DNA of 51,676 nucleotides from a phage, in the sequence record PZ534514.1, one strand, 5' to 3'. Shown one piece after another: positions 25,330 to 49,352 of this stretch (position 1 is its first letter; each line of letters begins with the position of its first letter). Below the pieces are notes generated by a model. It was not told the DNA's origin. It made no database searches and was given only the letters and a program-made list of their open reading frames with translations. The translations under genes were made by a program, and so were the position numbers.

Positions 25330-25365
25330 TTTGATTATATATTGGTTTGTCGATTCGTGCTATTT
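25330..25365 (-). promoter_or_regulatory. Promoter-like element (motif variant) plus leader hairpin upstream of portal
   Basis: Minus strand AAATAGCACGAATCGACAAAC...TATATAAT then hairpin ggctgg/ccagcc with T6, then RBS. Confidence 0.45.
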
Positions 25366-26928
25366 GTTCCGCAAACCTGCCAATTTTTTCATTCTTCCAA
25401 CCGGATCATCTGCCATGTTCATTTCAATGTTAACCGCATCAATGATGTTATCAACAATATCATCATGAGGATGACTATCATCGAATGTAAACGCCGCAAC
25501 TTCAGCGAGTATCTCAGCCAGCATAGGATGAGATTCTGGAAGTGCCACGCGTCCGGCGCGCATTACTGGTGCTGCGTCCATTGCACGAGTAACCTTGTCT
25601 TTATCGCGCTGAACGGGATTGATCTTGATCATGATTTTTTTCGCTGCACTCTGAATCAAACCAGTGCCAGACGATTTATCTTCAACATGAATCCTTCGCA
25701 ACGTTCCGCATTCTTTATTGCGCTTCCAGCACTGATTAACGAATGCAACAAAATTCGTCTCAAGTTCCGGCGCCTCCCATTTCCCGCGAACGCCATCAAT
25801 GAAGTAGACGCGATCTTTATACATCCCCCAATAACAGATAACGGAATAGTCGTTAAGCTCCCCTGTTTTCTGCGCGGTATCAACCGTGATAAATGTATAT
25901 TCAAAGCGATCCGGTTTTGGTAGCGTGCATTTCTCGCTGCTTCCGTAATACTGAAACCACTCTGTTTTAAACACGTTACCGCCAAGCGCAACAGGCTGTT
26001 GCTGATACTGACTAGCGAACGTGTACGGATCAGCATTGCGAAGCGCAAGCAATTCCTCCGCGCTTTCCTTAGCAGGCCAGAATGAATAATGAACAACGCC
26101 ATCAATCATCACTGGCTTACTGGACAAAACATCGCGATCAAACTCAGGCTTTAACCAATCAGGAAGCGTTTCGCGATATTCCTTGGTAACGAGCGCCGGA
26201 ATACTGACCACCTTAAACTTGATGCCGCCCATGCCGCCGTTTGTCATGAACCATGTTGAATCATTGACGTGTAGCCGTTGCTGGACCATTACGATTGGCG
26301 TTGTGTCCTTCATTCGACGCGATCGCACCGTGTTCTTTAGGCGCATGTGTCCGGCTTCGCGCTTCACCTTGGAAAGCATATCATCCGGCTTGTCTGGATC
26401 GTCAAGAACCAGCATACCAGTAAATCCATCGTCCATGTAGCCGCCACGCAGACCAGTAACCTGACCACCGATAGAACGCGAGTTAACTTGCAATTTAACC
26501 TTGCCGCCATCGGTTACAATCAAATCCTTTGCGCTTGCCTTTGCCAGTTTCCCAGGCCATAGCTCCTGCCATTCTGGAGAACCAATAATCTCTTTGATGC
26601 GGTTGCTGTTCTGCTGGACAAGGCCATCACTAAACGACAAATTAAGATTTCTTACCTTCTTACTTTTCAATGACGCATAAGGTGACATGTGGATCGAGAA
26701 TATCTCTGTTTTACCGCTACCTGGCGTTATGTTGAAAATTACATTCTGTGACTCGCCTTTGATGATTTTTTCAACTTCGCTGCATAGGTAACTGAAATGC
26801 CAGTTTCCTAAGAACCTTTGCCCCTGGAGAAGTTGAAACCAAATGCGGATCATCTTTTCGAATGAATGTTCGCTCATTTCCTTAATGGCGCGTTTTTGCG
26901 CCGCTGTTAAGTCTTCCCAAATCAGCAT
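25360..26928 (-). CDS. Terminase large subunit
   Basis: 522 aa; Walker A-like TPGSGKT, acidic VLDDPDKPDD, C-terminal nuclease-like region; overlaps the small terminase stop. Confidence 0.9.
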   Translation of the reverse strand: MLIWEDLTAAQKRAIKEMSEHSFEKMIRIWFQLLQGQRFLGNWHFSYLCSEVEKIIKGESQNVIFNITPGSGKTEIFSIHMSPYASLKSKKVRNLNLSFSDGLVQQNSNRIKEIIGSPEWQELWPGKLAKASAKDLIVTDGGKVKLQVNSRSIGGQVTGLRGGYMDDGFTGMLVLDDPDKPDDMLSKVKREAGHMRLKNTVRSRRMKDTTPIVMVQQRLHVNDSTWFMTNGGMGGIKFKVVSIPALVTKEYRETLPDWLKPEFDRDVLSSKPVMIDGVVHYSFWPAKESAEELLALRNADPYTFASQYQQQPVALGGNVFKTEWFQYYGSSEKCTLPKPDRFEYTFITVDTAQKTGELNDYSVICYWGMYKDRVYFIDGVRGKWEAPELETNFVAFVNQCWKRNKECGTLRRIHVEDKSSGTGLIQSAAKKIMIKINPVQRDKDKVTRAMDAAPVMRAGRVALPESHPMLAEILAEVAAFTFDDSHPHDDIVDNIIDAVNIEMNMADDPVGRMKKLAGLRNK

Positions 26929-27449
26929 TATATCTTCTCCAGAATGTCAATTACCGCCTCTTTGACTTCCTCCGCCGTTACAGCGTCAACGCTGGCGCTT
27001 GTGTTATTCTCAATGGTAACGGTAGCTGGCTTTTCAATGCCGATCTCTTTACCAATGAATCCGGCGTTAACAATATTGTTTGCGGCAAGCTGGAATTTTT
27101 GCTCGTAAACAACGCCGTCGATAAAGTCCATAACCTCGCTGAATCCTGGCTCACGTCGCCATTTTTCAAGCACGGAAGCAGAAAGGCCAGCGAATAATCG
27201 GAATCCGTTTAAGGTGAACACGCGCGGCTTGTGAATCTTGCTTTCGTATACGTCACCCTGAAAGGATGCCGTTTCCGCAGCCTGTATATGGTTTTCCTCA
27301 GCCCAAGTAAAGTAACGAACAGCCAGATCAAATACCTGCTCCGGCGTGTACTTGTGCGCCTTTGTCATTTTTGCTATATCGCCATATTGCTTATTATATA
27401 GTTTTTTAAAATTGCAAGCCTTTACTGCTGGCTCAACGTTTTTAGCCAT
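26928..27449 (-). CDS. Terminase small subunit
   Basis: ATG at 27449 with RBS aaggaggg; 173 aa; first gene of the packaging operon. Confidence 0.65.
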   Translation of the reverse strand: MAKNVEPAVKACNFKKLYNKQYGDIAKMTKAHKYTPEQVFDLAVRYFTWAEENHIQAAETASFQGDVYESKIHKPRVFTLNGFRLFAGLSASVLEKWRREPGFSEVMDFIDGVVYEQKFQLAANNIVNAGFIGKEIGIEKPATVTIENNTSASVDAVTAEEVKEAVIDILEKI

Positions 27450-27529
27450 AATGCGCCCTCCTTTATAACAAAGCATCATTATAGACAAATTGCAGGCAAT
27501 AAAAAACCCGCCATTTGGCGGGTAGTTGT

Positions 27530-47243: not shown

Positions 47244-49275
47244 AATTAAAGTCCTTCTTGTACAAATTATCTTCACCCTTGTTAGTCTTTCTGTGAGTTA
47301 CACGCGATGGTGGCATGATGTGATTCACATATTGCATGATTTTACGTGCATTACGATAGCTCGCCACCATGCCAGCAACACGGCGATCTGGTATGTGCTT
47401 AAGAGCAACGCTTCGCCATTTTGCGCGGCAAATTTGGCTCTCAGATTCAGGGAAAAATATCTCTCTCGCCCTGAAAGTGTCTATGCCATCGGAAAGCTCA
47501 TAATTAAATATTATCCCTTTCTGGTTTTTCGTCATGTCAACCGAGAAAGATTGCACCTGGAACCAGTCGTTTTTTGTGTAGTGCTTTCCGCTTAACTTCT
47601 CGTTAGGGTCAATCAATGACATGTCGCAATGTCTGCATACCCTGGCCGCAATATCATTTTTAGTTCCACAACCGCGCTGAATAATCTTTTTAGTGCGTGG
47701 GTCAATCTGATCATCACATGTCCTGAATTTAAAGAACCACTCGCATCTGTTGCCATTTTCGTCTACGTGCATACAACGACGAGCATAATAGCTATTAAGA
47801 GTTCCGCAAATAGGACAAGGCTTCGGATCTTTACCGTTCCTGAATCGCTTCTGATGTTGCGCCTGTTCCAGTATCGGATCAAAATAAAGCTCACCTAACT
47901 CGTCCATAGTTCCTGAAAAATCCATGACGAGATGATCATCTTTCTTGAATCCTTGCTCCTTATGCCACTTCTTAAGTAGTCGCATTCCGCGCCCTAAAAG
48001 CTGAATCAGCAACGTAAGAGATCCAATCTTACGCAATATAACCGACGTATCCCAAAACGGCACGTTAACGCCAGTAGTTAGCGCCTGAACCTGGAAGATG
48101 TATTTAACCTGCCCCTCGTATGCTTCCCTCAACCACTCTTTGCGCTGATTGTCGCCAGTCTTGCCAGTAATGATCCTGTAAGTCGTTCCAGGTGGCAACG
48201 CTGCCGCTGCCTCTTTGCAATGCCTTTCTCCTGCACATGTCACAAGTACGCCGTTGCGGTTTTTACAGATCTCGTGAACTTTCGCCATGATGCGCTTTGT
48301 CATGGTCGCTTCTTCATGAATTTTTTGTTCCATCCTGCGAAGCGTTTTAGCGTCAAAGTCTGCAACGCCATCCTCACTGGATGCCTCAAACTCTGAAAGG
48401 TCATACCCTAGATCGCCAACGTCTCCAAAATTTGTAGGAACAACCGAGCCAAACTTGATAAGGTAGTTGGTGTCAATATTAGTAACCTGTTCTCGCCAGA
48501 ATCCTTTCTGTTTTTTGTCTTCTACCAGGATCGGGACTACGCCGCGAAATTCCGATCCAGTCATGCCAAATATGCGCAGTTCATGACCATATGTTTTCCG
48601 GCAACGTCGCATCATTTCCATGATAATGACAGTGTATTGTGTGCGGCCTGTTCCCTCCATTGGCAAGCCATCCTCACCAATCAGGAACTCTGTATTTCTG
48701 TTCCTGCTTCCCTTTGTTATGTCATAATCTGGATTTGGTACTTTTTCGCCTTTCTTCGTCGTCATTTGTAAAAATGATTCGTCTTTCTCTATTGCGTCAG
48801 CAAGGTCTTCCCAATCCACCTGGTGACACTCGTCAATCCCGATAACGTGCGGAACATAGTCGCCAAGCGCTTTAAACAGTCCATTAACTACAGTTCCCTC
48901 AGAACCAACAACGATCGGAAAGTATGCGCTTTTTGTCTTCAGTCCTGCACAATAGATGGAGTTCGGCACTCCAAGATTTGTTATCTCTTCAGAATCCTGA
49001 TCCACAATCTCAGCCTGGCGAGCAAGGACCATCATTTTCAATCCCATTTTCCGGCACTGGTGAGCAACCATTGCAAACATTAATGTTTTGCCAGCCGATA
49101 CAGACGCTTTAACAAAGAATGGATGCTCATAATTTTTCATACGCTTTGCGATCTCAGCGTATGCAACGCACTGGTAAGGGTAAGGCACAATATCGCCAAC
49201 AGTGAATCGCTCCTGAATGGATTTAATTACCGCTTCACCAAGTGCTGATATTTGCTTTTCAATGTTTGGAATCAT
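47230..49275 (-). CDS. SF2 ATP-dependent DNA helicase (DEAH-box) with C-terminal Cys-rich region
   Basis: ATG at 49275; ORF-track upstream M overlaps the promoter motif. Walker A SVSAGKT, Walker B GIDECHQ, C-terminal CPICG...C...C cluster. Confidence 0.8.
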   Translation of the reverse strand: MIPNIEKQISALGEAVIKSIQERFTVGDIVPYPYQCVAYAEIAKRMKNYEHPFFVKASVSAGKTLMFAMVAHQCRKMGLKMMVLARQAEIVDQDSEEITNLGVPNSIYCAGLKTKSAYFPIVVGSEGTVVNGLFKALGDYVPHVIGIDECHQVDWEDLADAIEKDESFLQMTTKKGEKVPNPDYDITKGSRNRNTEFLIGEDGLPMEGTGRTQYTVIIMEMMRRCRKTYGHELRIFGMTGSEFRGVVPILVEDKKQKGFWREQVTNIDTNYLIKFGSVVPTNFGDVGDLGYDLSEFEASSEDGVADFDAKTLRRMEQKIHEEATMTKRIMAKVHEICKNRNGVLVTCAGERHCKEAAAALPPGTTYRIITGKTGDNQRKEWLREAYEGQVKYIFQVQALTTGVNVPFWDTSVILRKIGSLTLLIQLLGRGMRLLKKWHKEQGFKKDDHLVMDFSGTMDELGELYFDPILEQAQHQKRFRNGKDPKPCPICGTLNSYYARRCMHVDENGNRCEWFFKFRTCDDQIDPRTKKIIQRGCGTKNDIAARVCRHCDMSLIDPNEKLSGKHYTKNDWFQVQSFSVDMTKNQKGIIFNYELSDGIDTFRAREIFFPESESQICRAKWRSVALKHIPDRRVAGMVASYRNARKIMQYVNHIMPPSRVTHRKTNKGEDNLYKKDFNYGND

Positions 49276-49308
49276 TCTAAAACCTTTGAGTAATGCCATT
49301 TGGCGTGT

Positions 49309-49352
49309 ATAATACACAATCATTAAATCATCGTTTAACAAAAAATGCTATT
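49309..49352 (-). promoter_or_regulatory. Promoter-like element, conserved motif family
   Basis: Minus strand AATAGCATTTTTTGTTAAAC, 21 bp, TATTAT. Confidence 0.5.

Follow-up and report, generated by a model that had tools for sequence, protein, structure and literature searches.

The sequence record PZ534514.1, a phage DNA of 51,676 nucleotides (nt) that was analysed at its full length and is called the window below, contains a family of short repeated sequences that head small early open reading frames (ORFs) on both arms, as well as the helicase, primase, Dam methylase and ATPase genes. Megablast comparison identifies the phage as a T1-like coliphage (Drexlerviridae, Tempevirinae, Hanrivervirus-like) that shares 92-95% identity with its nearest relatives, PGN590, herni, JakobBernoulli and pSf-1; gene names were taken from the JakobBernoulli record. 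The repeats correspond base for base to the marbox, the binding site of the host activators MarA, SoxS and Rob, and their positions suggest that they are class II promoters.

The repeat family and its arrangement

The 22-mer AAATAGCACTTTTTGTTAAAAC is present in seven exact copies and in 12 copies with up to three mismatches, where 0.01 is expected from dinucleotide-preserving shuffles, and relaxing the search to six mismatches followed by iteration of a position matrix gives 22 family members in the window (Table 1). The family described in the first-pass annotation of this DNA is therefore real. All of the roughly 19 positions listed there were recovered, three further copies had been missed (11413(-), 21087(+) and 49820(+)), and the interval of 25330-49352 assigned to the family is too narrow, with copies at 5000, 6506, 11413, 17327, 21087 and 49820 lying beyond it.

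There are several common features. First, 18 of the 22 copies have a -10 hexamer 17-18 bp past the motif end, that is, 19 or 20 nt past its AAA, and all 18 are in the forward orientation, directed toward the -10 and the sequence downstream; the spacing of about 22 bp between TTGTTA and the hexamer noted earlier holds, 13 copies having 22 bp and the other five 21 bp. Second, 17 of these 18 are followed, about 25-35 nt past the -10, by a Shine-Dalgarno sequence and a start codon on the same strand; the motif start is 70-85 nt from the ATG in typical copies. Third, copies on both strands are oriented toward the next gene, as had been stated, with the exception of two antisense copies in the late operon, one of which was already listed; likewise a copy does exist in front of the portal gene, but it is degenerate, no -10 stands at the proper spacing from it, and a terminator comes next. 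Finally, at 12 of the 18 sites the stop codon of the upstream ORF falls within the motif, seven times as the TAG of ATAGCAC (30948, 34909, 37944, 39994, 40670, 45788 and 46808) and five times as a TAA over the first bases (29603, 33466, 34446 and 37447 among them). The same is seen in Rtp (9 of 13) and in T1, and the box is thus dual-coded.

Table 1. Members of the repeat family in the window. Promoter assignments are predictions; scores are from the marbox matrix derived from chromatin immunoprecipitation (ChIP) sites (maximum 18.6), and the gap is the distance in nt from AAA to the -10 hexamer.
Span	Strand	Type	Motif	-10 hexamer	Score	Gap	Context
4977..5021	-	predicted marbox promoter	AAACAGCACAAATAGCTAAACA, 5000-5021	TATAAT, 4977-4982	17.0	19	92-aa ORF 4660-4938, between exoVIII and Erf
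6506..6550	+	predicted marbox promoter	6506-6527	TATAGT, 6545-6550	17.7	19	ORF 6582-6809, occupying the Cor gene position
11413..11434	-	degenerate copy, probably not a class II promoter	AAATAGCACAAAAGGTGAAAAA		8.6		in coding sequence directly before ATG of J-like tail-tip gene, no space for -10; family matrix score 18.1; same variant as TLS DR8
17327..17372	+	predicted antisense marbox promoter	17327-17348	TATCAT, 17367-17372	16.3	20	within late (-) operon, major tail/chaperone junction; T1 counterpart 18833(-)
21087..21108	+	antisense copy	TGATAGCATTTTTTGTTAAACG	no good -10 at class II distance; best hexamer TGTTAT	15.2	17	between major capsid gene and its upstream neighbour; equivalents T1 15069(-), TLS DR7
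25344..25365	-	degenerate copy	AAATAGCACGAATCGACAAACC	none at gap 19-21	13.4		between terminase large subunit and portal genes; terminator hairpin follows
29579..29624	-	predicted marbox promoter	29603-29624	TAAAGT, 29579-29584	16.3	20	70-aa ORF starting 29546; CA at predicted start
30924..30969	-	predicted marbox promoter, GAA/TTGCTA variant	30948-30969	TATAAT, 30924-30929	17.4	20	CA start
32226..32270	-	weak variant	AAGTAGCACTTTTGCAAAAACA	TATAGT, 32226-32231	10.0	19	ORF 31931-32194; CA start
33443..33487	-	predicted marbox promoter	33466-33487	TATAAT, 33443-33448	16.0	19	CA start
34422..34467	-	predicted marbox promoter, exact 22-mer	34446-34467	tggCATAAT (extended), 34422-34427	16.3	20	293-aa ORF 33486-34367
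34885..34930	-	predicted marbox promoter, exact 22-mer	34909-34930	CATAAT, 34885-34890			spacer hairpin GCCAGGtgcaaatCCTGGC
36309..36354	+	predicted marbox promoter, exact 22-mer	36309-36330	TACATT, 36349-36354			heads rightward early operon, first gene 90-aa ORF 36393-36665; long-range hairpin encloses -10 and ribosome-binding site
37447..37492	+	predicted marbox promoter, exact 22-mer	37447-37468	TATATT, 37487-37492			
37944..37989	+	predicted marbox promoter	37944-37965	tggTATATT, 37984-37989	16.3	20	
38596..38640	+	predicted marbox promoter, GAA/TTGCTA variant	38596-38617	tggTATAGT, 38635-38640	17.4	19	
39994..40039	+	predicted marbox promoter	39994-40015	tggCATAAT, 40034-40039			128-aa ORF 40071-40457; spacer hairpin
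40670..40715	+	predicted marbox promoter, GCAT variant	40670-40691	TATTAT, 40710-40715	15.2	20	527-aa ATPase/helicase-like ORF 40744-42327; CA start
45764..45809	-	predicted marbox promoter, exact 22-mer	45788-45809	CATAAT, 45764-45769			spacer hairpin GCCCGACcttgtGTCGGGC
46784..46829	-	predicted marbox promoter, exact 22-mer	46808-46829	CATAAT, 46784-46789			Dam-like methylase ORF 46048-46749
49309..49353	-	predicted marbox promoter, GCAT variant	49332-49353	TATTAT, 49309-49314	15.2	19	DNA helicase gene 47230-49275; divergent from canonical promoter of Cro-like regulator gene
49820..49865	+	predicted marbox promoter	core GCACTAATTGCTAAA, maximum of the matrix	TATCAT, 49860-49865	18.6	20	primase gene 49895-50827; -10 in loop of terminator-like hairpin

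The observation of the repeat is not new, since the family has been published for TLS, T1, Rtp and Rogue1. A 2024 re-annotation of TLS describes a 21-nt direct repeat (DR), aaATAGCACnnnTTGnTAAAA, in 21 copies (DR1-18 are named) that are oriented with transcription about 76 nt 5' of start codons and fall into TTT, GAA and AAA subgroups; the authors noted the same repeat in T1, Rtp and Rogue1, could identify no more than three canonical sigma70 promoters, and left the role of the repeat undecided among stoperator, enhancer-binding site and UP element (PMC11447400). The repeat in the window is the same element, as it agrees in consensus, subgroups, direction relative to transcription, spacing of about 76 nt and occurrence in a T1-like genome, and Table S1 of the TLS study holds sequences identical to copies in the window. 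Unlike the present analysis, that study drew no link to a -10 at fixed distance or to the marbox, and the marbox identity and class II position of the repeat appear to have gone unnoticed before. In the open-access literature we found no paper tying the marbox or MarA, SoxS or Rob to T1-like phages, and a literature search found no transcription-start or RNA-seq data for this group.

Two further observations concern the surroundings of the family. The predicted antisense promoter at 17327(+) is followed about 20 nt downstream by a bidirectional terminator, GGGGCGcaaCGCCCC (within 17327-17420(+)); as it runs directly into this terminator, the predicted RNA is about 40 nt long. Separately, a megablast search with window positions 33000-41000 returns 20 records labelled as Campylobacter phages with C. 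jejuni as host that match this early region of an E. coli T1-like phage, and these host labels look doubtful.

Correspondence of the repeat to class II marboxes

The marbox is an asymmetric site recognised by AraC-family activators, with the working definition gcannwwntgnnaaa (PMC12052159). The phage sequence GCACTTTTTGTTAAA fits this definition at 15 of 15 positions, with an A site GCAC, a 7-bp gap and a B site YAAA. To avoid circularity, a marbox matrix was built from Salmonella ChIP sites only, namely 87 fifteen-mers representing MarA, SoxS, Rob and RamA sites in Table 1 of a ChIP-seq study (PMC10268841). Each of the 19 best hits of this matrix in the window is a copy of the phage repeat, with a score between 15.2 and 18.6 of a maximum of 18.6 (the training median is 11.5), and 22 hits score at least 14 where 2.3 are expected; at 49825 the sequence is the very one to which the matrix gives its highest score. 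The information content per column of the phage motif follows that of the ChIP marbox (Spearman 0.84, p=1e-4), and the positions that vary among the phage copies (TTT/GAA/AAA and TTG[C/T]TA) coincide with n, W or Y positions of the marbox. Several cores from this phage and TLS recur without change among host sites whose binding was shown by experiment, such as GCATTTTTTGCTAAA at ypeC.

The register of the repeat relative to the -10 is also that of a class II marbox promoter. AAA and the -10 are 20 nt apart in 13 of 18 copies in the window and 19 nt apart in the other five; in T1 the distance is 20 nt in 14 of 21 copies. The micF promoter on the E. coli chromosome has GCACTGAATGTCAAA, then 20 nt, then TAGAAT, and as the modal phage distance equals that at micF, the first base of GCAC in the phage is G-47. 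The soxbox of micF has its centre at -41.5, with GCAC as A site and CAAA as B site (PMC9638938), the cryo-EM complex of Rob with RNA polymerase has Rob contacting -47G and -45A with sigma region 4 displaced from the -35 region (PMC9178005), and class II marbox promoters have a forward box overlapping -35 and no recognisable -35 hexamer (PMC10268841).

An alignment of 294 unique copies with the same spacing, drawn from T1-like genomes and viral contigs, shows the features of a promoter in columns that lie outside those used for site selection. G-14, indicative of an extended -10, is present in 86% of copies, C-1 in 73% and A+1 in 88%; the -10 reads TAtaaT, and positions -35 to -30 read AAAACn, so that no -35 hexamer is present. 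G-47, C-46, A-45, C-44 and G-38 are invariant, and nothing is conserved upstream of -52. The first-pass annotation had argued that TTGTTA is too far from the hexamer to be a -35 box and that the motif is more likely a UP-element-like or factor-binding site. The alignment bears out the first point and confirms the hexamer 21-22 bp downstream as a genuine -10, and a factor-binding site is the best reading of the motif, whose asymmetric GCAC...YAAA pattern is of the kind recognised by MarA, SoxS and Rob. In the window, JakobBernoulli, T1 and Rtp taken together, 67 of 81 high-scoring marboxes are coupled to a -10 at 19-21 nt, as against 2 of 50 in unrelated viral contigs in which the pattern happens to occur, and micF passes the same test.

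Conservation continues into the initial transcribed sequence, ATCGAAACGA. The stretch A(+1)TCGAAACGA, from +1 to +11, recurs across copies (e.g. 34878-34868(-) and 36361-36371(+)) and is shared by C130_2 and further T1-like contigs; a role as leader or as translation signal is conceivable, or the likeness may simply reflect shared cassette ancestry.

Canonical sigma70-like matches are depleted between 28000 and 47900 of the window, with 21 found and 41.7 +/- 7.0 in shuffles, which agrees with the three canonical promoters found in TLS; a standard sigma70 scan misses the predicted marbox promoters. Intrinsic terminators are not enriched in the same early region (22 versus 19.2). Near-consensus canonical promoters without a marbox lie at 35692-35720(-) (TTGACA-17-AATAAT, ahead of the DUF7174 gene), 49285-49313(+) (TTGAGT-16-TATAAT, ahead of the Cro-like regulator gene), 28260-28288(-) and 6111-6138(-), and are candidates for activator-independent immediate-early transcription.

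We propose that the repeats are class II sigma70 promoters using host MarA, SoxS or Rob, a reading to which we give a probability of a little under 60%. Given the base-for-base, in-register match, about 18 phage promoters probably borrow these host proteins. The 22-mer would be a forward marbox read by both helix-turn-helix (HTH) motifs of MarA, SoxS or Rob (or of RamA in other enterics), with GCAC (the A site) at -47 to -44 and TAAA (the B site) at -36 to -33, and so placed it would overlap and replace the -35 hexamer. The -10, usually with an extended TGn, follows 18 bp past the marbox, and the start should be at the conserved A seven nt further. As at micF, a monomer of the host protein would occupy the box, push sigma region 4 aside, make contact with both sigma and the polymerase alpha subunit's C-terminal domain (alpha-CTD), and recruit RNA polymerase; the extended -10 probably lends some activator-independent activity.

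Several points weigh against this proposal. First, four copies (11413, 21087, 25344 and 32249) are degenerate or lack a proper -10. Second, the phage copies vary far less among themselves than host marboxes do, and seven of them are identical; A-48 is 99% conserved at a position that is 'n' in the marbox, and AAATA is kept at -52 to -48. This points to common descent, to an extra constraint such as the TAG stop codon in the motif, or to a reader more demanding than MarA, SoxS and Rob; part of the uniformity may come from common descent of the cassette and part from dual coding. Third, G-14 suggests that an extended -10 may be enough for these promoters to fire with no activator. Fourth, T1 grows fast in ordinary laboratory media, where the activators are in short supply, which makes strict activator dependence doubtful. 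Unstressed cells contain little MarA and SoxS, and most of their Rob is sequestered (PMC10268841). Finally, the literature search found no binding or expression data for any T1-like phage.

Alternative readers and roles of the repeat

The distribution of the motif bears on whether its reader is encoded by the host or by the phage. The motif is unchanged in T1, TLS and Rtp, throughout the subfamilies Tunavirinae, Tempevirinae and Braunvirinae, and in Enterobacter and Cronobacter phages, and the cassette, including the +1 sequence, is present outside the Drexlerviridae in C130_2 and in IME_EC2, a Murrayvirus with a P22-like virion module and 7-8 sites. What IME_EC2 and the phage of the window have in common is limited to enzymes of replication and recombination, methylases and a pair of small proteins, and protein comparison finds no HTH regulator common to the two. 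As the motif is constant though the phage proteins have diverged, and no regulator is shared, a conserved host protein would be the simplest reader of the box. It is possible, and we suggest it tentatively, that a whole group of virulent enterobacterial phages (including Drexlerviridae, Murrayvirus and C130_2-like phages) leaves most recognition of their early and middle promoters to host MarA, SoxS and Rob.

The acidic 90-aa protein encoded at 36393-36665(+) (PHROG 6147), the first gene behind a predicted marbox promoter, has a 55% identical homologue at the same position in IME_EC2 (37171-37389(-)), whose virion is unrelated.

The motif might instead be the site of a phage protein, either a class II activator comparable to MotA of T4 or a stoperator repressor, with its likeness to the marbox arising by convergence or mimicry. 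The uniformity of the copies and the additional A-48 and AAATA at -52 to -48 would fit a dedicated reader, an early regulator could be expressed first from the canonical promoters at 35692(-) (DUF7174) or 49313(+) (Cro/YdaS-like HTH protein), the annotators of T1 list further HTH-like proteins, and the core contains a partial dyad, TAGCA-N5-TGYTA. This pseudo-dyad, however, already belongs to the host marbox consensus, and the conserved flanks are asymmetric with AAA on both sides, and are thus a poor fit to a symmetric dimer. Nor was an AraC-family ORF, or any phage-encoded MarA-like protein, found in the window, JakobBernoulli, T1, Rtp or IME_EC2, either by tblastn or with a hidden Markov model of three sequences run over all six-frame ORFs (a RamA control scored 3e-45). 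A phage protein might still have a MarA-like fold without sequence similarity. The gene at 49365-49838, which has a canonical promoter to itself, encodes a regulator of the Cro/YdaS type with a single HTH; as a reader of the motif it was rejected, being absent from IME_EC2, which has the same cassette. A stoperator is expected to be accompanied by a conserved cognate phage repressor wherever the sites occur, and comparison of the window with IME_EC2 reveals none; moreover, these phages are virulent, and therefore no repressor or immunity system is expected. The invariance of the motif over subfamilies with strongly diverged proteins also speaks against a phage reader, which we regard as unlikely.

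RNA polymerase holoenzyme might also act alone, on extended -10 promoters in which the 22-mer is an UP-like or other polymerase-contacting element. In favour of this, 86% of copies have G-14 and their -10 hexamers are of good quality, the motif is rich in A/T and placed within reach of the alpha-CTD, early phage promoters have to fire without phage proteins, and T1 thrives in unstressed cells. Against this, the UP element consensus consists of A/T tracts between -59 and -38 with no invariant G or C, to which the invariant G-47, C-46, A-45 and G-38 of the motif are alien. The asymmetric GCAC...YAAA has no known readout by alpha-CTD or sigma, whereas MarA, SoxS and Rob contact exactly those bases, and a chance match of such quality, orientation and register to the site of one host factor would be very unlikely. 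The UP-element-like role favoured as one option in the first-pass annotation is thus not upheld, as the pattern is that of MarA, SoxS and Rob rather than of the alpha-CTD, and we consider it quite improbable that polymerase alone accounts for the motif.

Other known sites were also compared with the motif. A sigma54 promoter resembles it in GCAC...TTGC but was rejected: such a promoter has TGGCAC-N5-TTGC with fixed GG/GC spacing, while the motif reads TAGCAC-N3-TTG, which is 2 bp short, and a sigma70 -10 follows. Neither the UP element nor the sites of CRP, IHF, Fis, ArcA or OmpR fit when compared by eye.

A different kind of role is suggested by inverted repeats of variable sequence that either flank the -10 (GCGGTGt-TATAAT-tCACCGC) or fill the 18-nt spacer (GCCAGGtgcaaatCCTGGC). 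They are present in the window at 4977-5021(-), 34885-34930(-), 37944-38000(+) and 45764-45809(-), and in T1 at 1453, 2272, 4347 and 47616; those around the -10 at 4977..5021(-) and 37944..37989(+) are 8 bp long. Both arms of the hairpins would be present only in read-through RNA from upstream. The conserved unit could be mainly a signal in RNA or DNA structure, serving inter-cistronic processing or stabilisation, or be a recombination cassette for shuffling early genes like the PeSLs of T4. The hairpins over the promoter cores do exceed chance: stems flanking the -10 average 4.9 bp, as against 3.7 bp when arms are swapped between promoters (permutation p<0.0005), spacer hairpins of at least 5 bp number 6 where 0.75 is expected, and five of six read-through RNAs have folding z-scores between -2.7 and -3.7. 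The upstream stop codons in the motif (12 of 18 sites) and the homologous cassettes, including the +1 sequence ATCGAAACGA, in three phage lineages are also compatible with such roles.

Nonetheless, the motif is locked to a -10 and a start signal in a fixed register, and its units match no Rfam family. General masking of ribosome-binding sites, as in T4 late genes, was rejected on the basis of 46 promoters, for which the accessibility of the ribosome-binding site is 0.46 in read-through RNA, 0.66 in promoter-initiated RNA and 0.47 with shuffled upstream sequence (p=0.8); as shuffled sequence masks equally well, there is no family-wide design. The single sites 37447 and 34909 do resemble such masking. 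The ends of BLAST high-scoring segment pairs are 2.5x enriched near marboxes, as might be expected of a recombination cassette, but the enrichment is no higher than at motif-free gene starts: 13.5% of alignment ends lie within 40 bp of a cassette, versus 5.5% for random points and 13.8% for other gene starts, all in comparisons with fragmentary genomes. Roles in RNA processing or recombination could be secondary and leave the marbox identity unexplained; as the main function of the unit they seem very improbable. The inter-cistronic processing sites that the first-pass annotation offered as an alternative are accordingly set aside as a main function, there being no Rfam match and the -10 register being kept at 67 of 81 phage sites and only 2 of 50 unrelated ones.

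Consequences and comparison with known systems

Few coliphages are commoner than those of the T1-like group, which are also considered for phage therapy, and their transcription is essentially uncharted; annotators have found almost no canonical promoters in them and no role for the repeats. The class II marbox reading would provide a complete promoter map for the early and middle genes and turn an annotation puzzle into a direct experiment. If it is correct, phage growth would be linked to the mar/sox/rob regulon of efflux, porins and antibiotic tolerance, with a bearing on phage-antibiotic interactions (TolC, the receptor of TLS, is in the same regulon), and the phage sites would be the strongest natural marboxes known, useful as tools. 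On the more tentative reading that these phages leave most of their early and middle promoters to the host activators, bile salts, salicylate and redox stress would affect phage gene expression, and some 20 optimal marboxes on each replicating genome would soak up MarA, SoxS and Rob during infection.

The closest relative among host promoters is micF, the archetype of class II, which has the same asymmetric box (15 of 20 positions are identical between micF ACAGCACTGAATGTCAAAAC and phage ATAGCACTTTTTGTTAAAAC), in the same forward orientation, with 20 nt from AAA to the -10, no -35 hexamer and a sigma70 -10. Unlike host class II sites, the phage units belong to a virulent phage, number about 18 per genome and are near-optimal, with a median score of 16.3 as against 11.5 for the degenerate host sites; they also carry the extra AAATA upstream and usually an extended -10, and their binding by a host protein is a prediction.

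The stoperators of mycobacteriophage L5, as cited in the TLS study, are likewise many copies of one asymmetric site that lie between genes and are oriented with transcription (PMC11447400). That likeness in number, asymmetry, location and orientation does not extend to function, as stoperators bind the repressor of a temperate phage and block elongation, whereas the phage of the window is virulent, its site is locked to a -10 and no regulator is conserved with it.

In the PeSL cassettes of T4-type phages, a near-identical promoter and stem-loop precede many small early ORFs. Here too homologous cassettes are common to divergent phages; the hairpins of the window, in contrast, lie inside the promoter, and in comparisons with fragmentary genomes no excess of recombination junctions was found beyond that of ordinary gene boundaries. 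The middle promoters of T4 depend on the phage-made activator MotA and the co-activator AsiA, with a box centred near -30. They resemble the units described here in that an activator box, standing where the -35 would be and followed by an ordinary -10, sets apart one class of phage promoters; unlike in T4, no phage activator is detectable, and the box in the window is the site of a host factor, centred near -41.

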